Shown one piece after another: positions 29,596 through 54,434 of a stretch of DNA of 64,000 nucleotides (within the stretch, counting starts at the first letter, position 1; each line of letters starts with the position of its first letter). Source of the stretch: Dissulfuribacterales bacterium (GTDB lineage: Bacteria; Desulfobacterota; Dissulfuribacteria; Dissulfuribacterales; DYLC01); assembly GCA_041287365.1 (NCBI GenBank), contig JBEULL010000004.1:72353-136352 (forward strand). Reading direction: 5' to 3'. Below the pieces are notes generated by a model that was given only the letters and a program-made list of their open reading frames with translations, searched no databases and was not told the origin of the DNA. Position numbers and translations under genes: made by a program.

Positions 29596-29608
29596 AGGAG
29601 GAAAGACC

Positions 29609-31606: not shown

Positions 31607-32014
31607 TATGAGACCGAGGCTCACACCTTTATGCTGGGCGCAAGCCTGAAGCCCATGGCAAAGCTGTCCTTCAATCTCACTGGCAGCTATACCAAGGGCA
31701 CTGGTAACATCTCCGAGTTGAGCTTCGCTCACATGGAGACCAGCGACGTGAAGCTTTCTTACAACGTGAGCGCACTCAATCCTAATCAGATCTATCTCTA
31801 TGATACCGCATACATAAACGGCATTTCAGCCTATTCCAATGCGGATTTCAAAGAGATGGACTTGACTTTGGGCGTGGCCTACAGGCTCACCAAACAGATG
31901 GGTATCGGCTTGAACTACTATTATACGGATTATCAGGACGATGCACCTTATGTTTACAGGGATGAGAGTAATACACTTCAGTCGCTGGTGGGTTATCTGA
32001 CCTACAGCTTCTAA
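31601..32014 (+). CDS. C-terminal segment of the same MtrB/PioB-like barrel, in frame with 29609-31555 (not an independent gene)
   Basis: Same reading frame. No stop codon between 31556 and 32011. No signal peptide. It ends ...LVGYLTYSF, the typical OMP C-terminal Phe. The combined length is 801 codons. Confidence 0.7.
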   Translation: MEYETEAHTFMLGASLKPMAKLSFNLTGSYTKGTGNISELSFAHMETSDVKLSYNVSALNPNQIYLYDTAYINGISAYSNADFKEMDLTLGVAYRLTKQMGIGLNYYYTDYQDDAPYVYRDESNTLQSLVGYLTYSF

Positions 32015-32048
32015 TGCAAATCTTAAAAAAACACATTTGAATTCAGAA

Positions 32049-32081
32049 GGGGGCGCATGCACTGTGCCCCCAATTTTATTT
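32049..32081 (+). terminator. Intrinsic terminator after the porin gene
   Basis: GGGGGCGCA (32049-32057) pairs with TGTGCCCCC (32063-32071) around a 5-nt loop, followed by AATTTTATTT. Confidence 0.7.
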
Positions 32082-32173
32082 CATACACATTCACACTGCC
32101 TCAAATTAGAGTTTTTTTAAAATGGTTACAAGATGTATAGTTCCTGTGCCGAGACAGGGCAATACCTGGCCAG

Positions 32174-32211
32174 TATAGAACTGCCCAGTGATCTGGTAGC
32201 ACAATTGTCAG
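32174..32211 (+). repeat. 38-bp direct repeat, copy 1
   Basis: TATAGAACTGCCCAGTGATCTGGTAGCACAATTGTCAG is identical to copy 2. Confidence 0.95.
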
Positions 32212-32248
32212 CTTTTATTTTGTGATTGAGGGGCTATAATTCATAAAA

Positions 32249-32286
32249 TATAGAACTGCCCAGTGATCTGGTAGCACAATTGTCAG
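32249..32286 (+). repeat. 38-bp direct repeat, copy 2
   Basis: Identical 38-mer, 75 bp downstream of copy 1 (start to start). Confidence 0.95.
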
Positions 32287-32317
32287 GCTTTTAAGCTAAC
32301 ATTTTTAGATGGTTATG

Positions 32318-32363
32318 AACACAGCCCGGTCATGTTTCCCTTTATATATGACCGGGCTGTGTT
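32318..32363 (+). other. Perfect 16-bp inverted repeat (hairpin) with a 14-nt loop
   Basis: AACACAGCCCGGTCAT (32318-32333) pairs with ATGACCGGGCTGTGTT (32348-32363), followed by GTTTAT. It lies inside the 5' end of the ORF-track ORF 32309-33712. Confidence 0.85.
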
Positions 32364-32374
32364 GTTTATGGTGT

Positions 32375-41183: not shown

Positions 41184-43574
41184 TTATTTGATGCATACAC
41201 TTCTAACCTGCTTGATGTCTGTGTGCCCTTGCAATATCTTCCATATGCCGTCCTGCTTCAGTGTCAGCATTCCCATCTGCATGGCATGCGCTCCGATCTT
41301 GAAGACCGGCGCCTTGGATTGAATCAGCTTTTTCATTTCGTCATCGGATGTCAGCAGTTCGTGAATAGCCATGCGTCCCTTGTAACCCGTATAGTTACAG
41401 GCCTGACACCCAACCGGTTTGCAGATGGTGTAGTTGTTGAATTCCAGAGGAACAGTGGGATGGACTCCGTATTCTTTGAGCAGCATCTCTTTTTCTTCTG
41501 CACTTGGTTCATACTGTTCTTTGCATTTAGGACAGAGACGTTTCAGAAGCCTCTGAGCCAATACTCCAAGAAGGGCATCGGAAAAATTGAACGGGTCCAT
41601 ACCCATGCCCAGCAGCCTCGTAACAGTTTCCGGAGCGGAGTTGGTATGCAGGGTTGAAAAGACCAAATGGCCGGTCAGGGATGCCTCAATAACGGTGGTA
41701 GCGGTTTCTTCGTCTCGTGTTTCACCCACCATTATGATATCCGGGTCTGCTCTCAGAAATGCCCGCAAGACACGAGCAAAGGTCAAGCCTATGGCCGGTT
41801 TGACCTGAACCTGTCTTAGACCTTCCTGCACGATTTCAACAGGGTCTTCAGCTGTCCAGATCTTCTTTTCTGGTCTATTGACATAGCCCAGGGCGGCATG
41901 GAGTGTGGTGGTTTTACCTGAACCCGTGGGGCCGACGCAAAGAATAAGTCCATAGGGCATCTCAAGTATCTGCTTCATCGTGGCAAGATTTCTTTCCGAA
42001 AGATTCAGTTTGTCCAGGGGCATGGCCGAGGAAGCCGCCAGTATTCTCATGACCACGTCCTCGTTGTCTTCAGTAGTGGGCAGGGTGGCTACGCGCAGCT
42101 CTATGGTCTTGCCTGTGCGGCTCTTGAACTTAATCTTACCGTCCTGTGGCAGTCTTTTTTCTGCGATGTCCAGATTGGACAATATCTTGATGCGGGAAAC
42201 CAGGGCCTTTTTGTAGTTGTATGGAACGGTCTTGTATGGCCTGCAATCTCCGTCCACTCGCAGCCGAATGAAGGCCCCGCGTTTTCCAGTCAGGGATTCC
42301 ACATGGATATCCGAGGCATTTCTTGCAAAGGCATCCTCTATGACCTGATTGACCAGTTGAACGACGACACTGTCTGACTCAGGGGCGATTAGTTCTTCTT
42401 CTTCTGTTTCAGTGAGATCTTCTGTGGCTATTGCCTCAAAGGCATCCTGTTGTGTCTCGGTTACGGTGTATTTGCCGTAGAAGTAGTCGATAAATTTGTC
42501 GATGTCCTCTTTAAGGCACACCACAAATTCATATTGAGGGAATTGAATGGCCTTGCGAATGCTGTCCAGTTTGGCATAGTCATGCGGATCGTCCACCGCT
42601 ACCAGCAGACTATGGCCTAAATCCTTGATTGGCACACAACTTATGTTGCGTAGAAAATGTTCTTTTATTCCAGTCAGACACTTTGGAGTGGAACCGACCT
42701 CCAGTTCGTTGAATTCCACAAATGGGACATTGAAATATTCGCTCAGAGAATGACCGATCTCACTTTTGTCTATGCCGAAAGAGTTGATCAGGACGAATTC
42801 GATGGATTTTTTGTCGTTTTTTGCGATTTCTCTGGCCTGTTGCAGTGCCTGTTCTTTCAAAATGCCCGAGGTGACGAGATAGGAAAAACGGCCGTATCTC
42901 TGGGCGGTTTGCGTCAGGTCCTTCAGTCTTTGAGCCGCATTCATGTACTGCGGGTCGAGATGTATCAGTTGTTCAAGAGAGGATATTGCGGACTGAATGG
43001 CCCCGGTTCTCTCATGAATGGTGGAAATCTTGTAGAGCAGTTCGAGCCGAGTGGCCTTTGGTATGGTCGTATCCTTCAAGGCCATGCCAAACTGTTCCAG
43101 GGCGTCGAAAGGCATATTCAAGCCGATATAGCACTCGCCTATCTGTGCATATATCTCACCCGGCCTGTCCGTCATTTCCAGCAGTTTGGAGAAATCCGTT
43201 ATGGCTTCACGATAAAAACCGGCCTCTTTGAGTCCAAGTGCGTTTTCCTTGTTTTTTTCAAAGAGGTCCTGCGGACTGGAGGAGCCTGATTGAATGTCAT
43301 TGCCATGGTCGTGCGATTCACCAGATGTGTTTTGCAGCTTTTGCAGTTTTGCCTCTATATCTTTATAAAAAGGGGATGTTACGTCGGTGAGTTTGAAGAG
43401 GATATCTTCATATATTTCGATGGCCTCTTCCATCAGGCCCTGTTTGGCATACAAGGCCGCCTCCTCGGCCTTGACCGTCAGCTCGTCTGATGCCGGAGCG
43501 GGAGCATTGGCCTGAGCCGGCGGTGTATTGCTATCTTCTATAACTAATTCTAAATCCAGGACATCTTCCTGCAT
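41184..43574 (-). CDS. GspE/PilB-family secretion ATPase with N-terminal TPR extension
   Basis: Walker A GPTGSGKTTT, Asp box GETRDEETA, His box STLHTNSA and a tetra-Cys site CPKC...CQAC. A T2SSE_N-like region is present (FSYLVTSGILKEQALQQA...NVPFVEF). The N-terminal ~230 aa are TPR-like. The preferred start is ATG 43574 after GAGG; the ORF track uses TTG 43622. Confidence 0.85.
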   Translation of the reverse strand: MQEDVLDLELVIEDSNTPPAQANAPAPASDELTVKAEEAALYAKQGLMEEAIEIYEDILFKLTDVTSPFYKDIEAKLQKLQNTSGESHDHGNDIQSGSSSPQDLFEKNKENALGLKEAGFYREAITDFSKLLEMTDRPGEIYAQIGECYIGLNMPFDALEQFGMALKDTTIPKATRLELLYKISTIHERTGAIQSAISSLEQLIHLDPQYMNAAQRLKDLTQTAQRYGRFSYLVTSGILKEQALQQAREIAKNDKKSIEFVLINSFGIDKSEIGHSLSEYFNVPFVEFNELEVGSTPKCLTGIKEHFLRNISCVPIKDLGHSLLVAVDDPHDYAKLDSIRKAIQFPQYEFVVCLKEDIDKFIDYFYGKYTVTETQQDAFEAIATEDLTETEEEELIAPESDSVVVQLVNQVIEDAFARNASDIHVESLTGKRGAFIRLRVDGDCRPYKTVPYNYKKALVSRIKILSNLDIAEKRLPQDGKIKFKSRTGKTIELRVATLPTTEDNEDVVMRILAASSAMPLDKLNLSERNLATMKQILEMPYGLILCVGPTGSGKTTTLHAALGYVNRPEKKIWTAEDPVEIVQEGLRQVQVKPAIGLTFARVLRAFLRADPDIIMVGETRDEETATTVIEASLTGHLVFSTLHTNSAPETVTRLLGMGMDPFNFSDALLGVLAQRLLKRLCPKCKEQYEPSAEEKEMLLKEYGVHPTVPLEFNNYTICKPVGCQACNYTGYKGRMAIHELLTSDDEMKKLIQSKAPVFKIGAHAMQMGMLTLKQDGIWKILQGHTDIKQVRSVCIK

Positions 43575-43680
43575 ATTTTTTACCTCATTTATATAACATA
43601 CCGGTATGCTGTATCTTTTCAATTAGAATGGAGAATCAGCGGATGATCGGCATACATTGTGCCGGCATTCAGCGACTATT

Positions 43681-45189
43681 TTATGAAAATATTTCCTGCG
43701 ACAATACATGTATTTCATCGTCGTTCTTTTGCAGTACGCCTGTAAAAAATGGTTTTGCCGAAGCGTCTTTCCATGTCCATGCATCGGTCTTGAAGGGGGT
43801 CGAGGGGCTATCGGCCAGAATGACACAACCCTTGGATAGTTCCGGGTTCCAAAGGATCAATACGGATGGTTCCGTGATGATGATGGATGGAGGCGGTTCG
43901 GGTGAAACAAGGATTGGAAACGTCATAGTTTTTAGCTGGCTTTCATTCAGAGATGCCAGACTGCCTCCCAAAAGAGAGCGAATGTTGGACCACGGCCATT
44001 TTTTAAGCATGGTTAAGGGAAAGCTGTCTTTTGAAAGGAGCTTCTTGGCCCTGCCCCATGGGAGCTTGCCTTCAAATACAATATATTCCTGAGGGAATGC
44101 AATGCGTTTGCCCCACCATTCCGTCCTGGCCAGCATGCGCCACGGACAAACGGCCTGAGGGGGTTTGGCAGCTTCCTGGGCTTCGGAATGGGCGCCGGAC
44201 ACAACATGTCCCACTGGCTTGTGAATGGCCTGGGATAGAAGGCGCTCCTGCGCCGCCATGTCCTGTTTCAATTGCCTGTGAAATGCCAGTAGTTTTTCCA
44301 TGCCTGATACGCCTGAGAGGATTTTTTCCAGGGCATCCAACCTGTCCACCCATCTGCCGAGTTGCATTGTATGTCTGGCGACCGTTTCCTGTAATAAAGG
44401 TGGCGCTTCTGGTGTACTCGGAAGGAAGTGTTTCGATGAAACAGGCGGTTCTGTTTCAGGTACGAGTTGCAGGTTGGGGAGAGATTGTTCAGACATGGGT
44501 CGCTGCAGATCACGGGCCATGTCCGCAGCGGATGCCAGTGTCTGGGATGTGACGCCGGTGACAGGGGCTTGCTTCATCTGAAATGGAATATCCTGCTGTA
44601 TCCTTTCTATATATTCAAAAAACTCATTGAGCTCATGCGCGAGAGGGGCAGCCATCGCAATGGTTTTTTCATGGGTCATATTGTCTGAGGTAAGTATCCG
44701 TTCCAAGACATCGAAGAGATTTAGAAGCAGTTTGGGAGAGTGACTGGGTGCCTGGTTGAGTGGAATGGCCTCGATAGCTGCCAGTATGTCAGCCATTTGA
44801 GTCATGACATTCTGTGTGTGCTCGATCTGGTCTGCTGTCAAATTTGCGCTCAATTCGTCAAGTAACCGCCGTGCCTTCTGAATGTGTGGAACGGCTATTT
44901 CCCATTCGATGGTCATCAGGCTTTGGTAGAACTCTCTCAGGGCATTCTGAAGAGGCAGAGGCAGCTTGGCTGTATTATGCGCAAAGAGCTCTGATGTAGA
45001 TGTGGAGTCATGTGTGCCCGGAGTTGTTGGAGTTGAAGGGGTGGGCTCGGTCTTCGGGGAGACATCCTCCCCCTTGATTTCATTGGTCAGAGGGTCTATT
45101 TCTATTTTTTTTATTGGCGTAAAAAGAGAATCGATGGCATTCTCCATCTCTTGAGTGAGTTGTTCCATGGAATTTTCAGAAGTGTTCAT
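43681..45189 (-). CDS. Hypothetical protein (helical N-terminal two thirds, Pro/Thr linker, possible degenerate CheW-like C-terminal domain)
   Basis: Start ATG 45189 follows GGAGG at a 7-nt spacer. No motif is recognised with confidence. It lies between mglA and the ATPase on the same strand. Confidence 0.55.
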   Translation of the reverse strand: MNTSENSMEQLTQEMENAIDSLFTPIKKIEIDPLTNEIKGEDVSPKTEPTPSTPTTPGTHDSTSTSELFAHNTAKLPLPLQNALREFYQSLMTIEWEIAVPHIQKARRLLDELSANLTADQIEHTQNVMTQMADILAAIEAIPLNQAPSHSPKLLLNLFDVLERILTSDNMTHEKTIAMAAPLAHELNEFFEYIERIQQDIPFQMKQAPVTGVTSQTLASAADMARDLQRPMSEQSLPNLQLVPETEPPVSSKHFLPSTPEAPPLLQETVARHTMQLGRWVDRLDALEKILSGVSGMEKLLAFHRQLKQDMAAQERLLSQAIHKPVGHVVSGAHSEAQEAAKPPQAVCPWRMLARTEWWGKRIAFPQEYIVFEGKLPWGRAKKLLSKDSFPLTMLKKWPWSNIRSLLGGSLASLNESQLKTMTFPILVSPEPPPSIIITEPSVLILWNPELSKGCVILADSPSTPFKTDAWTWKDASAKPFFTGVLQKNDDEIHVLSQEIFS

Positions 45190-45236
45190 GAATATACCTC
45201 CTGGTTCAGTTCTGAGGGTCTTGTGTGGACATGGTG

Positions 45237-45851
45237 TCATTTGATCAGCAGATGCTTTTTTGCGACGTATTTAACGGTCAGCTTGCTGATTTCGCGCAAT
45301 GTTTCAAAAACCCCCACCCCTTTTACGGCCGATGCCTCGAAATCAGGCCATTTATTGTGAGGATTCAAATCCCTTTTCATCTCTTCGATGGATAGGGTTG
45401 GTATGGGAGAAGATACCAGGTCCCGTTTGTTGTATTGTATCACCATAGGGATTTCGTCCAAGGATTTTCCATGTTCTTTTAGATTGACGGCCAGGTCCTG
45501 AAGGCTTTCGATGTTTTTTGTCTTTCTGACCTTTAAGGAGTCCGCTACAAAAACTACACCATCCACACCTTTCAGAACCAGTTTGCGAGTAGATGCATAG
45601 ATGGTCTGCCCAGGCACTGTATAAAGTTGAATACGAATGTCAAATCCACCTATTTTGCCCAGATTCAGCGGTAATAGATCGAAAAAGAGGGTGCGATCGC
45701 CCTTTGTTTCGATGGTCAGCATCTTGCCTTTGGCGGCGTCGCTCATGGCGTTATAGATATAGATCAGATTAGTGGTTTTGCCGCATCTGCCTGGACCATA
45801 ATAGACCACCTTACAGTGAACTTCCTTTTTACTGAGATCGATTAAAGCCAT
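45237..45851 (-). CDS. mglA: Ras-like polarity GTPase MglA
   Basis: It aligns almost end to end with Myxococcus MglA from memory: CKVVYYGPGRCGKTTNL, DRTLFFDLLPL, LYTVPGQ, LKGVDGVVFVADS, VIQYNKRDL. Confidence 0.9.
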   Translation of the reverse strand: MALIDLSKKEVHCKVVYYGPGRCGKTTNLIYIYNAMSDAAKGKMLTIETKGDRTLFFDLLPLNLGKIGGFDIRIQLYTVPGQTIYASTRKLVLKGVDGVVFVADSLKVRKTKNIESLQDLAVNLKEHGKSLDEIPMVIQYNKRDLVSSPIPTLSIEEMKRDLNPHNKWPDFEASAVKGVGVFETLREISKLTVKYVAKKHLLIK

Positions 45852-45901
45852 TTTTTCATCCTGTCAGATAATGGAGTGTTGTTAGTGGTTGTCTGGGCTC
45901 G

Positions 45902-46294
45902 TCAATTCAACAATTCGCGTAGGTGCTGGGATGCCTCTGTGACTTTCAGTCGAACCACCCCCAGTGAAACATTGTCATTGAAGATAGAAATCAGTATATA
46001 GTCCTGGCCTATCTTGGCAAAATGGATACTGTCTTTTTTGCCCTTGTGGAACAGGAGGCTGAAGTCTTCTTCTCCGATGATGCGGGCGATCTGTGAGGTG
46101 GCTGCAAAGTTGGCTGCTGTAAGTGCTGCGAGGGAGATGATGTCGATGCCCTGCATATGTTCGCCGCAACTGGCGATTATGTTTCCGGCGCTGTCCACTA
46201 ATAAAACCGAGTGAATGCCGGCTGCTATGAGGTTGTTCTCAAGTTGTGCTCGAATAGCGTCCAATTTTGCAGTGGTTAAAACGAGGTCTCCCAT
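45902..46294 (-). CDS. mglB: Roadblock/LC7-domain protein MglB (MglA GAP)
   Basis: 130 aa with a Roadblock-type pattern (VLLVDSAGNIIAS...AALTAANFAA...). It lies immediately upstream of mglA. Confidence 0.8.
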   Translation of the reverse strand: MGDLVLTTAKLDAIRAQLENNLIAAGIHSVLLVDSAGNIIASCGEHMQGIDIISLAALTAANFAATSQIARIIGEEDFSLLFHKGKKDSIHFAKIGQDYILISIFNDNVSLGVVRLKVTEASQHLRELLN

Positions 46295-46531
46295 CTTTAG
46301 ACTCCATGAAGAAATGCTTTAAGATACCGGTTGTGCACCGGTTGTCACATTGTAAATTTACTCAGAAAGTTGGTTGCCACAATTCGATTCATTTTTTATT
46401 ATGTAGTTGGATTTTTTTCAAGTGAAATTCTTGTCGAAAGGTTTTACAATGAAAAATATATTTGTTATAATTAATAATAGTTCCGAATAATATGTTAAAG
46501 ATCAATTTTATGGGAAGGAGGTGCCTGATGC

Positions 46532-47380
46532 ATGTATGTGTCTCTGATTGAACGGTTGAACGGCATTCATGACCTGCCTTCCATTCCCAATACACTCAAC
46601 AAGGTGCTGAACGAATTGGCGCGAGAGTCTTCAACTCCGGATACCATCGAGATCATCATCAAGGAAGACCCTTTGCTCACGGCCAAGCTGTTGCAGGTGG
46701 CCAATTCCCCTTATTATGGCATGGCCGGAAAGATCAGCAGCATAGCGAGGGCCATAGTGATCATGGGCTTCGCAGAGGTGCGAAACCTGGTGGTGGGCAT
46801 CTCCCTTACAACCATGGTGACGGGTGATCTGGGCTTCGAGGAATTCAAAACCAAAGATCTGTGGCTTCATTGTGTGGCCGTTGCCACTGCTGCCCGCAAG
46901 CTGGCCCAGCATATTCCAGGAATGGACACTGAAGAGGTGTTCACTCTCGGTATCATGCATGATATCGGTCGTTTTTTGCAGTGTCTTTATTTTCCAAATG
47001 AAATGCGAGAGCTCCTGAAGGCGAACAACGGCATCAAGAACCTCTATGCGGCGGAAGAAAACGCCGGAATCCCTCACACAGAGATCGGGGCCTATCTGGC
47101 TCACCGTTGGAAGTTGAGCGAAATGTTCGTCGAGGCCATTCGTTATCATCACAGACCTCAGGGCGCTGGCCCATACACCGCCCATGCATCCGTGTTGTTT
47201 CTGGCGGATCAATTGTGTAAAAAATTGCAGATCGGATGGCATGGTGAGGACGTGGACAATCGTCTTTTAATCCCCAAGACATTGTCCTTGTCACAGGATA
47301 TCATAAAAGGGGTTGCGATTTACATGAAGGAACAAAAGGATGAGATTGAAAGGGCGTGGGATGAGGTATTGTCCACGTAG
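46532..47380 (+). CDS. HDOD-domain signalling protein
   Basis: Blocks LPSIPNTLNKVLNEL...DPLLTAKLLQVANSPYYGMAGKISSIARAIVIMGF and HD-like HDIGR. RBS GGAAGGAGG. Confidence 0.85.
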   Translation: MYVSLIERLNGIHDLPSIPNTLNKVLNELARESSTPDTIEIIIKEDPLLTAKLLQVANSPYYGMAGKISSIARAIVIMGFAEVRNLVVGISLTTMVTGDLGFEEFKTKDLWLHCVAVATAARKLAQHIPGMDTEEVFTLGIMHDIGRFLQCLYFPNEMRELLKANNGIKNLYAAEENAGIPHTEIGAYLAHRWKLSEMFVEAIRYHHRPQGAGPYTAHASVLFLADQLCKKLQIGWHGEDVDNRLLIPKTLSLSQDIIKGVAIYMKEQKDEIERAWDEVLST

Positions 47381-47454
47381 CAGTATGGTGGGGTCACTAC
47401 AAAAAAGGGGCGGGGCAACCCAACTCCTACTATGAATGCAACAGGAGGTAAACC

Positions 47455-48642
47455 TTGGCGAATTCAAAAGATCCGGTGCGTGTGCTGATAGTTGACGATA
47501 CCGCCTTCATGAGGCGGGCGCTGGTGGATATCTTTTCCAAGGATGCGGATATCAATGTGGTGGGAGTGGCCAGTCATGGTCAGGAGGCCATAGAGGCCAT
47601 CGAGCTTCTGTCTCCGGACGTCATCACCATGGATGTAGATATGCCGGTAATGGACGGCATCACCGCAATCAAATACATAATGGTGAAAAATCCCAGGCCC
47701 ATTATCATGATCAGCGGTATGGGAGGCCATGGTCCTGTCACTTTGGAGGCATTCAAGCTGGGTGCGGTGGATTTTTTGCAAAAACCATCCGGCACCATCT
47801 CTTTGGACATACATTCTCAGGCGGAGCATCTGTGCAAGGCTGTAAAAGAGGCTGTCGCTGTGAATGTGCGTCATATAAAGCGGGCGCGTCTGAGAATGCC
47901 TGTCATATCACAAGCCCCTGTAGCAGGACCTGCAAACGGCCTGTTGATATTTCTGGCATTGAAGGGTGCCTGCGGTCAGGTGATGCGTACACTTATGCAC
48001 ATAAAACCCTCGCTGCCGGTTTCCATTTTGGTGATTCATGATATGCCTCCGGAAGTGCTTAAATCCTATGCCACCGCATTGAGCAGACACGTGCCATGGG
48101 GTATTCGTGTGGATGAACGCGGAATGCTGCAAATGCCCGTACAGGAAGAGGGTTTTGAGGATGTCGCCTGTGATATATTTGATAGATTCTGTTCTGAGCA
48201 GGGTGTGGCGCATTTCTATCGTCTTATTCCAAACGATGACCTTGATCTGTTCTTGCTGGCCGTGGCGGAAAAGCTGGGGGAAAAGGCCTTGGCTGTGCTT
48301 TTCGGAGGTCCATCGGACGCGGGTATAGAGGGGTTGGCCGCTGTTGCAAAGGCCGGCGGTGTCAGTCTGGCCATGTCACCGGATATCTGTATCTACCCCA
48401 ATGCCACGAGACATGCCATTGAATCAGGGGCTGCCATTCAGGTTCAGACCGAAAACGACATCTGGAATCGAATAGACATCTTTGGTCGTCGTCTCAAATT
48501 TACGGTTGATACAACTGAAGACGCGCAGCGACAGACAGCCTTAGTGAACGATGCGGTGGGACCATCGAATACCGCCGCCCTGCCTGAACAGGAGGGTGTG
48601 TGTGCCGATGAAACCTCTGCGCCATTGGAGATGACATTATGA
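47455..48642 (+). CDS. REC + CheB-methylesterase-like protein, paralog 1 (nucleophile Ser apparently missing)
   Basis: CheB-type receiver (VLIVDDTAFMRR...DVITMDVDMPVMDG...AVDFLQKP). The C-domain carries LALKGACGQ, VIHDMPPEV and GGPSDAGIEG in place of GASTGG, QHMPPGF and GMGxDG. TTG start after AGGAGG. Confidence 0.8.
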   Translation: MANSKDPVRVLIVDDTAFMRRALVDIFSKDADINVVGVASHGQEAIEAIELLSPDVITMDVDMPVMDGITAIKYIMVKNPRPIIMISGMGGHGPVTLEAFKLGAVDFLQKPSGTISLDIHSQAEHLCKAVKEAVAVNVRHIKRARLRMPVISQAPVAGPANGLLIFLALKGACGQVMRTLMHIKPSLPVSILVIHDMPPEVLKSYATALSRHVPWGIRVDERGMLQMPVQEEGFEDVACDIFDRFCSEQGVAHFYRLIPNDDLDLFLLAVAEKLGEKALAVLFGGPSDAGIEGLAAVAKAGGVSLAMSPDICIYPNATRHAIESGAAIQVQTENDIWNRIDIFGRRLKFTVDTTEDAQRQTALVNDAVGPSNTAALPEQEGVCADETSAPLEMTL

Positions 48643-49724
48643 GCGGCAATGCGGACATCAATGCCGGGAATAGGCTCACGCGGCCTGTGCGGGTTTTTAT
48701 TGTGGACGACTCACCTCTGCTCTGCAAGGCTATCGAAAAGATGCTTCAGGACGACCCTGAAATAGAGATCGCCGGTCATGCCATGAGCGGCCAGGAGGCA
48801 TTGAACCTGTTGCCCAAAGCCGATTGTGATATATGCACACTTGACGTGCATATGCCTGGTATGAGCGGTATAACCGCGCTCAAACACATCATGATTCGTT
48901 TCCCTGTGCCGGTTTTGATGTTGAGTGCCTTTACCGCTGAAGGCTCACGCATTACCTTCGAGGCCCTTCGATACGGGGCGGTGGATTTTTTTCAAAAGCC
49001 ATCGAGGTTGAATGCCGGCGAGGCCGACAGCATTCTTGCACAGGCCAATATATTGAAGTCTAGACTCAAGAGGGCGTCCCGTGTAAGACTGGATGCAGCC
49101 CGTTATTTGAGATTGAAGGTGAAGCCGCGAGGACTGGCAGCGGCAACACAGGCAAAAGAGAAAGGTATAGTGGTCATAGGCACAACTACAGGAGGATATG
49201 CCTCGCTTCTGTCGTTGCTGCCCAATTTGAGCGCCCCGCCCACAACACCAGTTTTGGTCTTTCTTGGTGTAGCTCCTCAGTATGTCGGTCCATTTGCCGA
49301 ATATCTAAAGGCATATCTGCCGTGTCCTGTGGTCAGAGGAACACATGACAGCCGGCTTCAGGCCGGCAGCATCTATCTGGTTAGTATGTCAGAGTCGGCT
49401 GGCTTGGAATATCGAGGTGATGATACCTATCTGTTGTTGAACAATCGCTCCGAACTTATGGGAATGGAAAGCGGTCTGGATCTGCTGCTCTATTCGGTGA
49501 GTGAACACTTCGGCCCTCGAGGATTGGCGGTATTTCTGTCCGGCGATGGAACCGAGGGACTGGAAGGGGCAAGAGAGCTGGCCAGATGCGGCGGTATGGT
49601 GTTGGCGCAGACGCCTGAGACCTGTCTGGTGCCGGAATTGTCCGAGGCTGCCGGCCGCATAGAAAACGCCCGAATCTGTTCTTTGGCCGAACTATCGTCT
49701 CCCATCGTTTCATGGCCGTCCTGA
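48639..49724 (+). CDS. REC + CheB-methylesterase-like protein, paralog 2 (degenerate triad)
   Basis: Receiver with DICTLDVHMPGMSG. The C-domain carries IGTTTGG, FLGVAPQYV and SGDGTEG. ATGA overlap with paralog 1. Confidence 0.8.
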   Translation: MSGNADINAGNRLTRPVRVFIVDDSPLLCKAIEKMLQDDPEIEIAGHAMSGQEALNLLPKADCDICTLDVHMPGMSGITALKHIMIRFPVPVLMLSAFTAEGSRITFEALRYGAVDFFQKPSRLNAGEADSILAQANILKSRLKRASRVRLDAARYLRLKVKPRGLAAATQAKEKGIVVIGTTTGGYASLLSLLPNLSAPPTTPVLVFLGVAPQYVGPFAEYLKAYLPCPVVRGTHDSRLQAGSIYLVSMSESAGLEYRGDDTYLLLNNRSELMGMESGLDLLLYSVSEHFGPRGLAVFLSGDGTEGLEGARELARCGGMVLAQTPETCLVPELSEAAGRIENARICSLAELSSPIVSWPS

Positions 49725-49765
49725 CGGGCGGTTTCCCATACTGCATCAGAAGGTGACCATGGTAT

Positions 49766-51163
49766 ATGTCTGAACAGGACCTGCTTTCGATCCTTGAACA
49801 GATTCATGCAAAACAAGGTGGATTTTGCGGTATTTTGACTGGAATATCACTGTCTGATCTGGTTCAGATGTTATGTCAGGTGCCTTGCGGTAACAAAAAG
49901 ATATGCTTTCAATTTCAAAACGGCAATGGTTCCATCTATTTCATGGATGGCGAGATCGTTCATGCCGAAATAAGTGGTTGTAACTCCGTGAACGGAGAAG
50001 AGGCATTTTATGAGCTGCTCTGCCAAAGGGAGGGGACATTTCTCGTTACGGATGCAAATCATGTTTTGAAAACCATTCATGCCCCATGGCACGCCCTGCT
50101 CATGGAGGCCATGAGAAGAACGGATGAGATAGCGGCTGCAACCAGTTCCAGGGTTACAGAGGTAATGATTGTGGATGATTCGCGTCTCTTTGCCAATGTC
50201 CTGGAAAAGGCATTGACGGAGCAGTGTAACGCGAAAGTCGTAGGCAAGGCCTTTGACGGCAAGACAGCCCTTGGACTTTTGAAGGGCATTCGGCCAGACC
50301 TTTTGACCATAGACATCACCATGCCGGTCATGGCAGGGGATTCGCTGCTGAAAAATATCATGATCCGTTCACCGGCGCCTGTGTTGCTTATGAGTTCCAT
50401 GGGTTCAGGTACCATGCCCAAGATCATGGAATTTCTTCGGCTTGGAGCAGTGGATTACATTCCAAAGCCCAGGTCCGAGGCTGAATGGTCTGACTGTCTG
50501 GAGCGGCTCATAAGACATGTGCAGGATGTGGGGCGTTACTCCTTGAGACATATCAGCAGGGCCAAGGCGGTTATGCCGGTCATGCACAAAAGAGATGCCA
50601 TTGAAAGGGCGGAAAGGCTGCTCGTGGTGCTGGGAGGTGTTGGTGGAATGCTGGAGATTCAAAGGCTTCTGCCCGGCCTGTGCGGGCTGGAGGGTATCGG
50701 TGTCGTGATTTTTCAGGACATGGCCGAGGGGTTTCTGCAGCCGTTTGCAGATTATCTCTCCAAATCTTTCTGTTTTCATCTCTCCACCATGAAACATGGT
50801 GATATTCTTCAGGGTAATGCCTGTAAAATTGCATCATGGAAACATACATGGCGCCTCGATGCTCTTCAGAACAGGTTGTCCGTATCCGTTGTGCCAAGTG
50901 AATCGTCTTTGGATATCAACGTATTTTTGAGTGATGCTGCGAAATATTACGGCACCAAGCTGCATGTCTTGATTTTGAGCGGCACCAGATTGGATGTGGA
51001 GGCAGGGTTGCAGGATGTGGTGACGCATGGGGGTCATATCTTTTTGCAGAATGTTGATTCGGCCATTTTTGCCGAACCTTTGTTGCAGATAGCTGCCCTG
51101 GAACTCGAAGAGTCCAGCATAGACCCTGCAAAAATAGCTGAAAGTTTGATGACAACTCAATAA
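49766..51163 (+). CDS. DUF4388-like + REC + CheB-methylesterase-like protein, paralog 3 (degenerate triad)
   Basis: The N-terminal block LTGISLSDLVQML...GSIYFMDGEIVHAE...GEEAFYELLCQREGTFLV is DUF4388-like. Receiver with DLLTIDITMPVMAG. The C-domain carries VLGGVGG, FQDMAEGF and SGTRLDV. Confidence 0.75.
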   Translation: MSEQDLLSILEQIHAKQGGFCGILTGISLSDLVQMLCQVPCGNKKICFQFQNGNGSIYFMDGEIVHAEISGCNSVNGEEAFYELLCQREGTFLVTDANHVLKTIHAPWHALLMEAMRRTDEIAAATSSRVTEVMIVDDSRLFANVLEKALTEQCNAKVVGKAFDGKTALGLLKGIRPDLLTIDITMPVMAGDSLLKNIMIRSPAPVLLMSSMGSGTMPKIMEFLRLGAVDYIPKPRSEAEWSDCLERLIRHVQDVGRYSLRHISRAKAVMPVMHKRDAIERAERLLVVLGGVGGMLEIQRLLPGLCGLEGIGVVIFQDMAEGFLQPFADYLSKSFCFHLSTMKHGDILQGNACKIASWKHTWRLDALQNRLSVSVVPSESSLDINVFLSDAAKYYGTKLHVLILSGTRLDVEAGLQDVVTHGGHIFLQNVDSAIFAEPLLQIAALELEESSIDPAKIAESLMTTQ

Positions 51164-51210
51164 ACTCTGTGGAATATTGAAGTTTCAAAAGAAGGAAGAT
51201 AGGAGGTTGA

Positions 51211-51552
51211 ATGTCTCGTATATTGGTAGTCGATGATTCGAGTTTTATGCGTAAACGTATAGTGGATGTCCTTATGAAGGTCGGTCATGATGTAATAGGT
51301 CAGGCCGAAAATGGGGAACAGGCGATCGCCCTTTATGCGGAATTGTTGCCGGATTTTGTGATTATGGATGTTACGATGAAGGGTTTGGATGGAGTGGAGG
51401 CTGCGAAGCGTATCAAAAAACAGCGACAGGATGCAAAGATTATCTTTATGAGTCTGGTTTCGGATGTAGAGGTTGTAGAACAGGCCAAGGCCCTTGGAGC
51501 GGTGGCGTTTTTAAAAAAAGACGAATACGACCGTTTGTTGGCCTTGTTGTAA
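51211..51552 (+). CDS. cheY: Single-domain response regulator (CheY-like)
   Basis: 113 aa, with ILVVDDSSFMRK and DFVIMDVTMKGLDG. Confidence 0.8.
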   Translation: MSRILVVDDSSFMRKRIVDVLMKVGHDVIGQAENGEQAIALYAELLPDFVIMDVTMKGLDGVEAAKRIKKQRQDAKIIFMSLVSDVEVVEQAKALGAVAFLKKDEYDRLLALL

Positions 51553-51611
51553 ACATTCTGCGACTGCATGACCCGTTGTAAAATCTGTCATTGTTGAACC
51601 AAGGAGGAATC

Positions 51612-54434
51612 ATGGCTGTTGACAAGGAAATGCTCAAGGAGTTTGTGGCCGAAGTAGAAGACAATCTGCATGAATTGGAAAATAATCTTCTGGTGTTGGA
51701 ACATGATTCGGCCAATCGTTCTTTGCTGGATGCCTGTTTCAGAAATATGCATACAATAAAGGGTTCCTCCGGCTATATGGGCTTCACATCCATGGCTAAA
51801 CTGGCGCACGCCATGGAGGATATGTTCGACCGCGTCAGGAGAGGGGATGCAACTATTGCCGAACCAGGTATGGCGCTCGTATTTCAGGGGGTTGATGCCC
51901 TGAAAACCCTTTTGAATGAGTTGGAGGCGCAAGGTGAAGAGATGACGGATTTTTCAGGCCTGAATGCCAGGTTTGAAGAATTCGGCCGGCAGCCTGCAAT
52001 ATTGGAAACAGCGGCGCAGTCGTTACCTGATGTTGATGTCGAGGGTACTGAAACGATGCAGGCCGTGAAGCAGAAACCTGATGCGGTGACTGAAAATGAG
52101 GAGGACGAGGAGTTGTTTTCCATCTATAAAGATGAACTCAAGGGGTTGTTGTGGCAGCTCTCAACCCTTTTGCAGAACGACAGCGCCCCTGGTTCCGAGG
52201 TTATCAGGATTATCTCAGATATAGAGAGAATGACCAATTATGTGGGTATCGATGACCTGCTCGATGCCCTGCAGAAGCACCGTGATGCCATATCAGGATT
52301 GGGCGACGATATAAGTCGCAGCGATCTAGAAAAGATATATCGAGACCTGCTGGATCTTTTCAGACCATTGATCGGAGAGACGGAAGATGTCCTGATGCAG
52401 ACTCCGGAGTCATTGCCAGCCTTTCTCGAAGAAGACGATCAGGAACTCTATGGCATTTTTTTGGATTTTGTGGCGGAAAAATCCGTTCCGTTCGCCAGTA
52501 TGCCGAATATCGCAGACGAGACATGGATAGCGAAGTGTCAGGAGTCCATAGAGGCCATACGGAGTTCAGCCCATTATATGGATTACATGGACGTGGTGGC
52601 GCTCATGGACGAGTGGATGGAGAGACTGACCGAGGCCCTCACGGCCTGTCACAGCGGTGCATGTCTGGTAACAAGTCCGCTTCAAAATCTATGGGAAAGA
52701 TTGCAGCAGATGCTGCCTGGTCTCACAGAGAAATTCGAGGCCATGCATAGCGAACAAAAAGAGGCATCCATCGGAAGTATTTCTGAACTCGACGATGTGT
52801 TGGACGGATTGTTTCAGGACAATATGCTGGACTTCGGCCTTAAAGAGATGCAGCCGGCGCAGGCTGCATCGAGCTCAATGGAGGCTATAGAGGCAGAAAA
52901 GACCAAAGAGGAGCCGTTCTCAGGAGATGTTCACAGCGGCGCCATAGACGACGCCATCTTCGACAACGCCTTCAACGACATGTTCGAAGCGCAGCCCGCG
53001 GAAACCATTCAGACACATGTAGCGGCTTCGAAGGAGACAACGCAGACTTTTTCGTCTGATCTGTCGCGGCCGTTGACCGTAAAGACACCGGATACCTCAG
53101 GCATGAGGCAGCAGCCGGAGGTTACTGCCACTGCAACCCAGACGGTCAGAATCGATCTGTCTCGTGTGGACCAGCTTCTGGGGGATGTGGGTGAGCTGGT
53201 GGTGTTGAGGGCGGGCATGAAACAGATGTCTGACCAGATGAGAGACATTCACCGCTATCTCCTCAGCAAGGGTCTGCTCAATCGGGATCTCAGAGAATTC
53301 AAGGACGTAATGATACGCATGAGTGAACAGACCTCGACCATGAGCCGTATCCTGAATCATCTGCAGGACGGAATCATGAAGATGCGCATGCTGCCTATCG
53401 GTCAACTGTTCGACAGATATCCACGTATGGTGAGGGATTTGAGCCAGAAACTTGGTAAAAAGGTGGTATTGGACATCTCTGGAGCGGATACCACTCTGGA
53501 TAAACGTATAATAGAGCAGATGGTGGATCCCATGATGCACCTCATTAGGAATTGTGTGGATCACGGCATAGAGCCCCCTGATATTCGTGAAAAACTGGGT
53601 AAGCCCGCGGTGGGTACAATACTGTTGTCGGCATCCCAGGAAGGCAACTTCGTGACTATCACCATAATGGATGACGGAAAGGGCCTGGATCGGGATGCAC
53701 TCATTCAAAAGGCTGTGTCCATGGGTATTCTGTCCGCTGAACAGACCAGGGGGCTGCCGGATGAAAGGGTCTGGGAGCTCGTTTTTCTTGCGGGTGTGTC
53801 CACTGCCTCCCAGATTTCCGACACGTCCGGCAGAGGAGTGGGTATGGATGTGGTCAGGAGGAATGTGGAAAAGATCGGCGGGCAGATACAGATATCTTCC
53901 ACACACGGTAAGGGCACTCGGTTTGTGATTCGTATTCCATTGACCCTTGCCATTATTCAGGCGCTTCTGGTCAAAGTAGGCCAGCAGACCTTTGCCGTGC
54001 CGCTCTCTGTTATAAAGGAGACTCTCAGGGTGCATTCCCAGGAGATCAGCAGTATCGAGGGCATGGAGATGTTCTCTCTCAGACAGCAGACCGTGCCTTT
54101 TATCCGTCTGTCCTCCATTTATAGGGGTACAGGGGCGTTGAAAGAACAGGGAAAATTTTTCGTGGTAATGGTGCAACATGGTGAATTTGTTGCAGGGCTT
54201 GGAGTGGATGCACTCGTCGGCCAGCAGGAGATTGTGATAAAACCATTGGCTGAATATCTGACGGATCAACCTGGTTTTGCCGGCGCGACTATTCTCGGTG
54301 ACGGCTCTATCGCACTGATTCTGGATATCCCGTCGGTCATGCAGCGAGCCAGGCAATTTACACAATTAAAACAGCAAGTTATGGAGAAAAATGCCATCGG
54401 CTTGCACGAGGGTTACGGCGGCTTCATGCAATAG
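51612..54434 (+). CDS. cheA: Chemotaxis-type histidine kinase CheA with additional Hpt-like repeats
   Basis: Hpt domain with FRNMHTIKGSSGYMG, a dimerisation region, HATPase (HLIRNCVDHGIE, DDGKGLD, GRGVGMDVV) and a C-terminal CheW-like domain. Start ATG 51612 follows AGGAGG. Confidence 0.9.
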   Translation: MAVDKEMLKEFVAEVEDNLHELENNLLVLEHDSANRSLLDACFRNMHTIKGSSGYMGFTSMAKLAHAMEDMFDRVRRGDATIAEPGMALVFQGVDALKTLLNELEAQGEEMTDFSGLNARFEEFGRQPAILETAAQSLPDVDVEGTETMQAVKQKPDAVTENEEDEELFSIYKDELKGLLWQLSTLLQNDSAPGSEVIRIISDIERMTNYVGIDDLLDALQKHRDAISGLGDDISRSDLEKIYRDLLDLFRPLIGETEDVLMQTPESLPAFLEEDDQELYGIFLDFVAEKSVPFASMPNIADETWIAKCQESIEAIRSSAHYMDYMDVVALMDEWMERLTEALTACHSGACLVTSPLQNLWERLQQMLPGLTEKFEAMHSEQKEASIGSISELDDVLDGLFQDNMLDFGLKEMQPAQAASSSMEAIEAEKTKEEPFSGDVHSGAIDDAIFDNAFNDMFEAQPAETIQTHVAASKETTQTFSSDLSRPLTVKTPDTSGMRQQPEVTATATQTVRIDLSRVDQLLGDVGELVVLRAGMKQMSDQMRDIHRYLLSKGLLNRDLREFKDVMIRMSEQTSTMSRILNHLQDGIMKMRMLPIGQLFDRYPRMVRDLSQKLGKKVVLDISGADTTLDKRIIEQMVDPMMHLIRNCVDHGIEPPDIREKLGKPAVGTILLSASQEGNFVTITIMDDGKGLDRDALIQKAVSMGILSAEQTRGLPDERVWELVFLAGVSTASQISDTSGRGVGMDVVRRNVEKIGGQIQISSTHGKGTRFVIRIPLTLAIIQALLVKVGQQTFAVPLSVIKETLRVHSQEISSIEGMEMFSLRQQTVPFIRLSSIYRGTGALKEQGKFFVVMVQHGEFVAGLGVDALVGQQEIVIKPLAEYLTDQPGFAGATILGDGSIALILDIPSVMQRARQFTQLKQQVMEKNAIGLHEGYGGFMQ

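Follow-up and report, generated by a model that had tools for sequence, protein, structure and literature searches.

A conserved locus of sulfur-cycling Thermodesulfobacteriota joins mglAB, a TPR-fused PilB-like ATPase gene and a chemosensory operon with three CheB-like proteins lacking the catalytic triad

Does a locus in which mglAB and the gene of a PilB-like ATPase lie back to back with a chemosensory operon encode one system, and what would such a system control? The locus lies in a stretch of 64 kb from a Dissulfuribacterales bacterium (hereafter, the window). According to Pfam it comprises 10 genes, four on the minus strand (the core operon) and six divergent on the plus strand (the che-like operon; Table 1). 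A first-pass annotation of the sequence had described these genes, coordinates, and domains correctly for all 10, but had counted 11. The locus is a real, conserved module of sulfur-cycling Thermodesulfobacteriota. By analogy with characterized systems, we propose, with a probability of about 55%, that it acts as a self-contained signalling module that would steer one dedicated PilB-like ATPase by two converging inputs. The module probably sets the place and time at which a pilus-type motor operates.

Table 1 Positions of the module features in the window.
Feature	Coordinates	Strand	Length	Assignment
TPR-fused PilB-like (GspE/PilB superfamily) hexameric ATPase	41184..43574	-	796 aa	Pfam T2SSE, MshEN, weak TPR
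Orphan	43681..45189	-	502 aa	No Pfam or NCBIfam match; AF2 models and Foldseek
mglA, MglA-type small Ras-like GTPase	45237..45851	-	204 aa	Motifs and weak Arf/Ras Pfam matches
mglB, predicted GAP of MglA	45902..46294	-	130 aa	Robl_LC7; first gene of the core operon
Divergent promoter region	46295..46531	.	237 bp	AT-rich; separates mglB from the HDOD gene
HDOD-domain protein	46532..47380	+	282 aa	Pfam HDOD 185 bits (cutoff 22.9), HD 47.5 bits; heads the che-like operon
REC + pseudo-CheB paralogue 1	47455..48642	+	395 aa (longest ORF; 386 aa gene call)	Response_reg 81 bits, CheB_methylest 53 bits
REC + pseudo-CheB paralogue 2	48639..49724	+	361 aa	Pfam Response_reg and CheB_methylest
PATAN(DUF4388)-REC-pseudo-CheB	49766..51163	+	465 aa	DUF4388 54.4 bits (cutoff 25), Response_reg 64 bits, CheB_methylest 63 bits
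CheY-like single-domain response regulator	51211..51552	+	113 aa	Pfam Response_reg 83 bits
CheA histidine kinase	51591..54434	+	940-947 aa	Pfam Hpt, H-kinase_dim, HATPase_c, CheW

The order mglB–mglA–orphan–TPR-ATPase is present in every related locus with a visible flank, 33 loci from 14 lineages (all 28 orphan-containing metagenome loci with a flank and all genome loci; lineages defined at 90% MglA identity). The mglB gene is immediately upstream of mglA in the window as in all related loci, and the orphan gene is always located between mglA and the ATPase gene. The invariant order is in keeping with an action of MglA on the TPR-fused ATPase. The full 10-gene arrangement is found in 8 of the 11 assessable lineages, in agreement with the earlier proposal that the genes could form one module, and the HDOD gene keeps the first position of the che-like operon in all full modules. 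The flanking genes are unrelated among these lineages and include lspA/mazG, cytochrome/serS, ATP synthase, and dsr genes. In the window, the flanks are housekeeping genes, lspA and an M48 peptidase gene on one side and mazG and glycosyltransferase genes on the other.

The two operons diverge from a 237-bp intergenic region that, as already noted in the first-pass annotation, is AT-rich, with a GC content of 31% vs 50.6% for the window. A sigma-70-like promoter on the plus strand (46443-46471; TTTACA-17-TATAAT with the TG of an extended -10; 11 of 12 positions match) precedes the HDOD gene, and the minus strand of the region contains weaker sigma-70-like matches.

MglA contains GPGRCGKT at residue 19, RTLFFD at residue 53 (R53), TVPGQ at residue 78 (T78–Q82), and NKRD at residue 141, a set common to the MglA proteins of the window and lineages L003, L007, and L086. 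These are the features of an MglA-type GTPase, namely GxxxxGKT, a G3 threonine in place of aspartate together with Gln82, the intrinsic Arg53, and NKxD, with mglB adjoining. The catalytic motifs of MglA are intact, and the protein is 72–80% identical between divergent module lineages. MglB scores 45.8 bits against Pfam Robl_LC7 (cutoff 23) and 64 bits against the NCBIfam MglB equivalog model, under the cutoff of 200.

The ATPase is composed of a TPR extension (residues ~40–230), an N1/MshEN-like domain (residues ~231–400), and the N2 and catalytic domains. Residues 227–794 align full length with PilB (3jc8 and 5tsg) and PilF (6f8l), and Pfam assigns 393 bits to T2SSE, 48 bits to MshEN, and a weak score to TPR. 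Walker A (residue 548), Walker B (DPDIIMVGETRD), the Asp box (576), the His box (635), and the tetracysteine zinc motif (CPKC at 681 and CQAC at 723) are all recognizable, which places the protein in the T2SSE superfamily with intact catalytic motifs. The scores against the NCBIfam equivalog models of PilB (TIGR02538, 519.7 bits) and GspE (TIGR02533, 473.2 bits) are under the respective cutoffs of 675.65 and 630.25. TPR Pfam families are clear in homologues of the ATPase and are recorded in most of them. The TPR region 111–230 is 41–57% identical across lineages, indicating that the extension is under constraint.

No pilC, pilM–Q, pilin, or gsp gene is found in the window or within ±10 kb of any annotated related locus, and no platform protein, pilin, or secretin is encoded near the ATPase in any locus. 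A prepilin regular expression has zero matches in the window, where essentially every ORF was searched with Pfam, so the earlier statement that the ATPase has no pilin, pil, or gsp structural gene beside it stands. Most likely, the machine driven by the ATPase is a type IV pilus or a related filament system and is encoded elsewhere in the genome.

The che-like operon encodes a kinase and four receiver domains. CheA is composed of an Hpt domain with His54 (HTIKG at 54), a degenerate Hpt-like region (residues ~293–379), and the P3, P4, and P5 domains, with the N, G1, F, and G2 boxes at residues 650, 694, 732, and 747; no P2 domain was detected. It is a complete CheA with intact catalytic motifs. 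The DD, D, S, and K residues of the acceptor pocket are visible in the sequence of CheY. In paralogue 1, Ser164 of the methylesterase triad is replaced by Leu and positions 190 and 286 are Asp and Ala, while D10, D11, and D56 of its REC domain are present. In paralogue 2, whose gene overlaps that of paralogue 1 by ATGA, as first reported, comparison with Salmonella CheB (1A2O) gives Thr for Ser164, Gly for His190, and Glu for Asp286. The third protein has Gly for Ser164, Asp for His190, and Asp at position 286. Across six modules, 0 of 17 CheB-like domains contain the complete Ser164–His190–Asp286 triad (Salmonella numbering), and the acidic pocket (D10, D11, and D56) is conserved across those proteins except for one E10. 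All three CheB-like proteins are thus predicted to be catalytically dead in every examined lineage, and this state is ancient. Both the pseudo-CheB triplet and the four receiver domains suggested by the first-pass annotation are upheld, and all four receivers retain their acceptor residues.

The third CheB-like protein has an N-terminal DUF4388 (PF14332) domain followed by REC, as PATAN-REC regulators do, and departs from the type in its extra C-terminal pseudo-CheB domain. In Synechocystis, a PATAN domain binds the N-terminal domain of PilB1 as well as PilC (bioRxiv 10.1101/2021.06.11.447907), and mglAB genes sometimes adjoin PATAN genes (PMC4316618). By this analogy, the protein is a candidate for direct regulation of the ATPase N-terminal domain. 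The multi-Hpt-like N-terminus of CheA, together with a PATAN partner, points to Tfp/ACF-like systems, which we take only as a lead.

The protein encoded between mglA and the ATPase gene, a 502-aa orphan in the first-pass annotation, is not featureless. The 502-residue form is the likely product, because a GGAGG ribosome-binding site is located 7 nt upstream of the ATG at 45189. The orphan has zero matches in Pfam and NCBIfam. It starts with a conserved N-terminal peptide (IDxLF...IEIDPLTNEIK), followed by a degenerate Hpt/P1-like helical bundle (residues ~78–199), a helical hairpin (residues 264–323), and a C-terminal domain (residues ~350–500) with a predicted CheW/CheA-P5-like fold. In Foldseek searches of the PDB, the top 14 matches of the full AF2 model are all CheW or CheA-P5, and so are the top 18 matches of the domain model (probability 0.69–1.0; TM 0.42–0.54), after which the probability is at most 0.08. 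These AF2 models derive from shallow alignments (pLDDT 67 and 77), and it is in such predicted structures that the C-terminus has the two intertwined β-barrel subdomains of the CheW/P5 fold. At the sequence level, hhalign gives no signal against a profile of 121 CheW/P5 domains (probability 0.5–3%). CheW is the Pfam family matched by most members of the orphan family, weakly (3 of 64; best E 0.016), and the Pfam CheW model does not match the window orphan.

The bundle aligns with Hpt in hhalign (82% probability over 84 columns), and the full model also matches P1 domains in Foldseek. The position of the phosphorylated histidine is occupied by Asp in the window protein and varies among family members, and P3 and P4 are not detectable. 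The family consists of 118 clusters at 50% identity among 1.84 billion representatives, and its members are only 24–28% identical across the eight lineages with the divergent che arrangement. The Hpt-like bundle and the CheW/P5-like fold suggest that a coupling protein is present in disguise. We propose from these models that the orphan is a kinase-less CheA-like scaffold that could link both operons.

No MCPsignal domain, stand-alone CheW, or CheR was found by Pfam in essentially every ORF of the window; the sole match of a CheW profile built from 121 domains is the P5 domain of CheA, and a regular expression for the conserved MCP tip motif has zero matches. The window locus thus encodes CheA without the MCP, CheW, and CheR of a complete Frz/Chp-type pathway. 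In two divergent lineages (L091 and L096), an orthologous dCache-HAMP-MCP gene is located directly behind the ATPase gene, and in L096 only, a CheW gene is adjacent to the module. The remaining module loci have no MCP or stand-alone CheW, and CheR is absent from all Pfam-annotated related loci. The term "receptor-less" in the first-pass annotation therefore describes the window locus and not the module in general.

In the reading that we favor, MglA-GTP would bind the ATPase at its N-terminal TPR extension, much as it binds the TPR protein SgmX in Myxococcus, with the adaptor here fused to the motor. Binding would recruit or activate the ATPase, and MglB would reset MglA by stimulating GTP hydrolysis. 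CheA would autophosphorylate and hand phosphoryl groups to the four REC domains. Phosphorylated PATAN-REC-pseudo-CheB would contact the ATPase at its N1/MshEN-like domain, in the way that PatA-type regulators bind the N-terminal domain of Synechocystis PilB1, and thereby turn the motor on or off or shift its location, while CheY and the two other pseudo-CheB receivers might serve as phosphate sinks or extra outputs. As a degenerate CheA-like scaffold, the orphan might dock through its CheW-like domain on CheA-P5, or on a receptor or CheW encoded elsewhere, and so anchor the kinase to the complex of MglA and the ATPase. The net output would be to control filament assembly in space (at the poles) and in time. 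We infer all protein–protein contacts in this scheme by analogy.

A bolder version, which we consider rather unlikely, sees in the orphan family a very strongly diverged adaptor of CheA/CheW descent through which a Ras-like polarity GTPase, together with its effector ATPase, is coupled directly to a chemosensory kinase. The result would be a "G-protein-coupled CheA" complex, working in most lineages without a transmembrane receptor array, in which the three dead CheBs serve as phosphorylation-controlled binding modules. If true, it would be a hard-wired answer to how chemosensory pathways talk to MglA.

Information might also flow in the reverse direction, with the orphan standing in for a receptor in the cytoplasm and signalling the nucleotide state of MglA or the state of the ATPase to CheA through its CheW-like domain, and the phosphorelay (CheY, the pseudo-CheBs, and HDOD) as the output to other targets. 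The place of a protein with a CheW/P5-like fold between mglA and the ATPase gene, the absence of MCP and CheW genes from most loci, and a CheA that keeps a P5 domain in need of a partner are all consistent with such a flow. We nevertheless consider it unlikely, since the MCP genes beside the module in L091 and L096, and the CheW gene in L096, suggest a conventional input, and the PATAN domain points to the ATPase as the target.

It is less likely again that two independent systems lie side by side, the mglB–mglA–orphan–ATPase operon and an unrelated chemosensory operon (one serving flagella, for example, or some alternative cellular function), sharing only the promoter region. Three of the 11 assessable lineages have no che operon beside the core, one having an Hpt-like gene only and two having no che gene; the core is therefore probably able to work without an adjacent relay. 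In addition, an ATPase homologue occurs alone in L088, and PATAN-REC-CheB proteins occur in che clusters lacking mglAB, for example in cable bacteria and L008–L013. Against this reading, the divergent layout is kept in eight lineages despite the low identity of their orphans and wholly different flanks, Hpt-like and CheW-like domains are encoded within the core operon itself, in the orphan, and PATAN is a known PilB-binding domain. Moreover, the variant lineage retains its Hpt-like gene beside mglB at the same divergent position, so that CheA-type domains are again linked to the core. Of the single 11-gene module first suggested, the four-gene core is invariant, but the che operon is not obligatory.

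The MshEN match raises the question of whether the ATPase is a motor of the MshE type that acts as a c-di-GMP receptor, so that the module would chiefly be a switch, driven by c-di-GMP, for a pilus or for secretion, with HDOD and a nearby GGDEF protein as regulators. A PilZ gene follows the ATPase gene in L113, and the window contains a dCache-GGDEF gene 17 kb away. However, the tandem 24-residue binding motif, RLGxx(L/V/I)(L/V/I)xxG(L/V/I)(L/V/I)xxxxLxxxLxxQ, has no regular-expression match in the ATPase, and neither copy is conserved. In the register of M. xanthus PilB, motif 1 reads GRF...A, with GRF for RLG, and motif 2 has S.E......F...Y at the R, G, G, and Q positions, without the Arg, both Gly, and the Gln. 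Furthermore, the GGDEF gene shows no synteny with the module outside this lineage, and HDOD domains are, to our knowledge, not established c-di-GMP enzymes. We regard this explanation as very improbable. An ordinary chemotaxis adaptation/excitation pathway with redundant active CheB methylesterases is hardly tenable, for although the three proteins carry CheB-like labels in Pfam and NCBIfam, the triad is absent throughout, the NCBIfam CheB scores are 148–217 bits vs a cutoff of 293, and no annotated locus has CheR.

Our literature search found no paper describing the module, which apparently is undescribed so far, as the first-pass annotation held; its logic has precedents, though, in MglA acting through a TPR protein on PilB and in PATAN acting on PilB. 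The module is best read as the logic of Frz/MglAB/SgmX/PilB and of PatA/PilB in compact form, with known parts in a new arrangement. In Myxococcus, MglA-GTP binds TPR12-14 of SgmX, which acts upstream of PilB (PMC7668184). The module resembles the Myxococcus xanthus system in an MglA with the same R53, T78, and Q82, a Roadblock GAP (here predicted), a CheA-based chemosensory pathway (Frz), and a TPR element between MglA and a PilB-type ATPase. In Myxococcus, however, the genes are dispersed rather than in one compact locus, and the TPR protein, SgmX, is a separate 14-TPR protein rather than a fusion to the ATPase. The window locus has no FrzCD-type receptor, CheW (FrzA/B), CheR (FrzF), or active CheB (FrzG), and no RomR/RomX or FrzZ/FrzX was seen at the locus. 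We know of no Myxococcus counterpart of the three pseudo-CheB receivers, HDOD, and the CheA-like orphan. In Bdellovibrio bacteriovorus, the MglA effector is reportedly a TPR protein, Bd2492, linked to pilus function, and RomR is said to belong to the system as well. Unlike in the module, that TPR protein is separate from the ATPase, and neither an adjacent che operon nor MglB is known in Bdellovibrio.

The orphan is comparable to CheA3 of Rhodobacter (Cereibacter) sphaeroides, a degenerate Hpt...CheW CheA that is the partner of CheA4 (PMC10542144); the orphan, too, is predicted to have an Hpt-like bundle at its N-terminus and a CheW-like domain at its C-terminus. The pair sets a precedent in which a degenerate CheA, its middle domains non-functional, cooperates with a complete or core CheA. 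CheA3 retains the phosphorylatable His, recognizable remnants of P3/P4, and a Pfam-detectable CheW domain, whereas in the orphan the His is not conserved, P3/P4 are not detectable, and the sequence has no significant match to CheW. The orphan gene is co-transcribed with mglAB and the ATPase gene rather than with che genes.

Pil-Chp of Pseudomonas aeruginosa likewise has a kinase (ChpA) with at least two Hpt-like regions, a CheB homologue encoded in the same cluster, and several CheY-like receivers (PilG/PilH) with antagonistic or sink roles, and its output is the polar activity of the type IV pilus ATPases (PilB/PilT). It has the PilJ receptor, the CheW proteins PilI/ChpC, PilK (CheR), and an intact ChpB, which the module locus lacks, whereas MglAB, PATAN, and the TPR-fused ATPase are present in the module and not known from Pil-Chp. 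In the cyanobacterial Tax/Pix systems, a PATAN-REC regulator is encoded beside CheY and CheA, as here, and PATAN is the output domain, its target being the N-terminal domain of the ATPase for pilus extension. Unlike those systems, the locus has no MCP/photoreceptor or CheW gene, encodes MglAB and the target ATPase alongside, and adds a C-terminal dead CheB domain to PATAN-REC. This PATAN-REC-CheB architecture occurs in about 160 clusters, mostly from Thermodesulfobacteriota.

The locus comprises ten genes in two divergent operons, the minus-strand core operon and the plus-strand che operon. The ORF listing, together with Pfam and NCBIfam scans, recovers every gene and domain claimed in the first-pass annotation, which had counted 11 genes. 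Gene callers start the 502-aa protein encoded between mglA and the ATPase gene (hereafter the orphan) at an upstream ATG, which would give 519 aa. The 237-bp spacer between mglB and the HDOD gene has a GC content of 31% and contains an 11/12 sigma-70-like promoter.

Genes of the core and che operons in the window.
Gene	Position	Strand	Features
mglB	45902-46294	minus	Robl_LC7
mglA	45237-45851	minus	MglA-type GTPase motifs
orphan	43681-45189	minus	no family match (Pfam/NCBIfam); 502 aa from the ATG behind GGAGG
ATPase gene	41184-43574	minus	796 aa; weak TPR, MshEN, strong T2SSE domain
HDOD gene		plus	beyond the spacer; opens the che operon
three REC+CheB_methylest genes		plus	genes 1 and 2 share an ATGA overlap; gene 3 has an N-terminal DUF4388/PATAN
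cheY and complete cheA		plus	end of the che operon

Exact-protein lookups and one scan each of genomes and of metagenomes (the latter with a 16-sequence orphan alignment) supplied the related loci. A near-full mglA of the module type is present in 33 loci, representing 14 lineages at 90% MglA identity. Wherever the flank exists in this set, the order mglB>mglA>orphan>TPR-ATPase is kept without exception, and the divergent HDOD/CheB-like/CheY/CheA operon, with its three CheB-like genes, lies beside it in 8 of the 11 lineages whose upstream sequence is long enough to judge. Related genomes thus share the synteny, with an invariant core of four genes and a che operon that often adjoins it but is dispensable. 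The idea that all the genes form one module is partly supported: the module is real, but the che operon is optional, being missing in three of the 11 lineages. We put the probability that this is a functional module at about 0.85–0.9.

Lineages with the full module include L003 (GCA_015489365.1), L007 (uncultured Desulfobacterales), L086 (GCA_013154175.1; NCBI lists its ATPase, P0044, under Thermodesulfobacteria bacterium) and L091 (the cultured Dissulfurirhabdus thermomarina, GCA_012979235.1). The MAG GCA_964427245.1 carries the module too. Their orphans are 24–28% identical to that of the window, and their flanks all differ (a cytochrome gene and serS, ATP synthase genes, or dsr genes). In one lineage (L098, L099, L101-L103 and L119), a 271-aa Hpt-like protein alone diverges from mglB (L099, 7584-8399). 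It corresponds to CheA residues 11–122 and 293–379, and Gln replaces the phospho-His (NMQSIKG); therefore, it is a pseudo-Hpt. In two lineages (L100/L104 and L110/L113), no che gene diverges from mglB. Smaller variations occur as well. In L091, a further 201-aa gene, with a faint Hpt match, lies between cheY and cheA (11907-12512). In L096, there is no space for cheY between the PATAN-REC-CheB gene and cheA (4101-4121), indicating that a single-domain CheY is not universal in the module.

Neither the TPR-ATPase family (TPR+MshEN+T2SSE, ~770–800 aa) nor the PATAN-REC-CheB architecture is confined to the module, and both are widespread in Thermodesulfobacteriota. The matches listed in a genome scan with a PATAN-REC-CheB alignment were mostly ordinary CheBs, and only L006-L013 were informative. 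L088 (6367-12412) encodes a TPR-ATPase homologue (55% identical) without mglAB, orphan or che genes, with an HDOD gene ~3 kb off. In the cable bacteria L089/L090 (Candidatus Electronema; 222-11407), PATAN-REC-CheB lies in a different che cluster without mglAB, together with a 1121-aa CheA, a REC-CheB, a ParA-like ATPase, an ABC transporter, and PilZ and HAMP proteins. Three Gemmatimonadaceae loci (L045, L063 and L080; ~4500-5700) carry an mglA homologue (48–51% identical) ~5 kb upstream of an ordinary cheB, which is a different MglA/che neighbourhood.

MglA carries the M. xanthus-type catalytic set (GPGRCGKT, R53, T78VPGQ82 and NKRD). Residues 227–794 of the ATPase align over their whole length with PilB and PilF structures, and the Walker A, Asp box, Walker B, His box and tetracysteine motifs are present. 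The protein falls below the NCBIfam PilB and GspE equivalog cutoffs, indicating that it represents a distinct PilB-like paralogue family. In Dissulfurirhabdus, the module ATPase has 777 aa, and the ATPase entry P0125 has 652 aa. The N-terminal extension is conserved, with residues 111–230 being 41–57% identical across lineages, and clear TPR Pfam families are matched in this extension of the homologues. The suggested coupling of MglA to the ATPase is strongly supported by genomic context. The canonical c-di-GMP motifs of MshEN are not conserved in the ATPase, and a reading of this domain as a c-di-GMP receptor was dropped for that reason. In L113, from a lineage without the che operon, a 134-aa PilZ-domain protein is encoded directly 3' of the TPR-ATPase gene (9656-10060), which hints at a c-di-GMP input there.

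The orphan belongs to a genuine family of modest size that has so far gone unannotated; an exhaustive profile search gives 118 clusters at 50% identity, 77 of them with E <= 1e-30. The predicted fold and an Hpt-like bundle point to a hidden CheA/CheW-like protein. The AF2 model, from an 11-sequence alignment, comprises a helix (4–22), a helical bundle (78–199; pLDDT about 80–92), a two-helix hairpin (264–323) and a beta-rich domain (350–500). When the full model is compared with the PDB by Foldseek, ranks 1–14 are CheW or CheA-P5, and the bundle is matched by CheA P1 domains. Modelled alone (pLDDT 77, pTM 0.72), residues 338–502 match only CheW or CheA-P5 in the first 18 ranks (probability 0.69–1.0, TM-score 0.42–0.54), with the next at a probability of <=0.08. 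At the sequence level, a profile of 121 CheW/P5 domains does not match the orphan in hmmsearch, hhalign of the C-terminal domain with CheW/P5 gives probabilities of 0.5% and 3%, without significant signal, and CheW, which among Pfam families matches the largest number of orphan members, does so in 3 of 64 (best E 0.016). Therefore, the CheW-like assignment rests on fold.

The orphan bundle aligns with an Hpt profile over 84 columns (82% hhalign probability), and the position of the phospho-His is Asp in the window protein and variable across the family. For the hairpin, an MCP signalling tip and a CheA P3 dimerisation domain were both rejected (0% and 7% probability). The most conserved part of the family is a near-invariant N-terminal peptide, IDxLF ... 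IEIDPLTNE(I/V)K (window 45073-45189, residues 1–39), whose IDDLF core may resemble the EIDALL-type peptides through which FliM and CheZ bind CheY. On the simplest reading of the models, the orphan would be a strongly diverged, kinase-less and His-less CheA-like scaffold, for which R. sphaeroides CheA3 provides a degenerate-CheA precedent (PMC10542144).

The CheB-like proteins of the che operon are predicted pseudo-enzymes, as proposed for the window triplet. In an alignment with Salmonella CheB, none of 17 CheB-like domains from six modules has Ser164, His190 and Asp286 together, and the window proteins read L/D/A, T/G/E and G/D/D there; a reading as active CheBs was rejected on this triad. 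The REC acidic pocket and Asp56 are kept in all CheB-like proteins examined, indicating that the pseudo-enzyme state is old and maintained. To our knowledge, this is the first clear case of three conserved pseudo-CheB receivers retained as a set. CheA has His54 (within HTIKG), its N, G1, F and G2 boxes are all intact, and an additional degenerate Hpt-like region is present.

The system had also been described as receptor-less. Pfam annotation of essentially all ORFs finds no MCPsignal, stand-alone CheW, CheR, pilin, pilC, pilM-Q or gsp gene in the 64-kb window, as claimed for the chemosensory genes; the sole window match of the 121-domain CheW profile is CheA-P5, and regular expressions for MCP tips and prepilins have no match. 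Most module loci likewise lack an MCP or stand-alone CheW, and no CheR is present in the Pfam-annotated ones. The exceptions are L091 and L096, in which a dCache-HAMP-MCP gene converges on the ATPase gene at its 3' end; in L096, a 202-aa CheW is encoded as well, upstream of the MCP gene. Between L091 and L096, identity is 58% for the MCPs (other MCPs among the loci, <=33%), 48% for the CheAs and 27% for the orphans. Therefore, "receptor-less" fits the window locus but not necessarily the whole system.

Two contacts established by experiment in other systems map onto the locus. SgmX, which is bound by MglA-GTP at its TPR repeats, acts upstream of PilB (PMC7668184), and a PATAN domain binds the N-terminal domain of Synechocystis PilB1 (bioRxiv 10.1101/2021.06.11.447907). 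Here the TPR is fused to the ATPase, the divergent operon supplies a PATAN regulator and mglAB are co-transcribed with the ATPase gene; therefore, we propose two inputs. MglA-GTP would gate or localise the ATPase through the TPR extension, and MglB would reset MglA. CheA would phosphorylate the four receivers, of which PATAN-REC-pseudoCheB (the third REC–CheB-like protein) would act on the ATPase N1 domain; CheY and the remaining pseudo-CheBs would serve as sinks or further outputs. The CheW-like domain of the orphan could link CheA, or a distal receptor/CheW, to the MglA–ATPase complex. Homology makes a type IV pilus-like system, with its genes outside the locus, the likeliest machine for the ATPase to drive. 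We lean, by a little, towards this specific two-input mechanism.

In Myxococcus, the genes for the chemosensory, MglA and motor links are scattered and several links are still indirect, whereas here all the presumed partners lie in one conserved locus; the adaptor TPR is a separate protein (SgmX) there but is fused to the motor here. We know of no organism other than Myxococcus in which CheA-to-MglA/MglB signalling and the route from MglA to the pilus motor have been worked out. In accordance with the first-pass annotation, full-text literature searches turned up no account of the whole module, nor of its TPR-ATPase, orphan family or triple pseudo-CheB. Surveys report some mglA/mglB genes near PATAN genes (PMC4316618), with the relevant taxa given in their tables only as 'MglB>MglA>', and a 2024 review of PilB cofactors mentions neither TPR, PATAN nor MglA (PMC11656802). 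Every component falls within a known superfamily, and Myxococcus, cyanobacteria and Pseudomonas offer clear precedents for the logic, so the module is not categorically new. A one-locus module with a CheA/CheW-like protein co-transcribed with mglAB yields a short list of testable binary interactions, and it adds an unannotated protein family of about 80–120 clusters at 50% identity. Dissulfurirhabdus thermomarina is a cultured host for experiments, and Thermodesulfatator may be a second. Should the module turn out to do no more than routinely regulate an ordinary type IV pilus, it would still provide useful annotation for many Thermodesulfobacteriota genomes.

The remaining window ORFs are housekeeping or unrelated (tRNA synthetases, EF-G, SelB, hyp genes, lspA, mazG, recA and others). 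A dCache_3-GGDEF diguanylate cyclase (21976-24162) and a sigma-54 REC-AAA-HTH regulator (20542-21927) lie ~17–20 kb from the module and are not syntenic with it in other lineages. A multihaem c-type cytochrome, an MtrB/PioB-like outer-membrane porin, a weak porin-like ORF and a 467-aa ORF without Pfam match (28603-33712) form a possible extracellular electron-transfer conduit. Two unusual proteins are encoded as well: one with C-terminal TPR repeats fused to a YcaO cyclodehydratase domain (4260-6005), and a 182-aa protein with a eukaryote-type RRM_1 RNA-recognition motif, adjoining the hyp genes (24209-24757).
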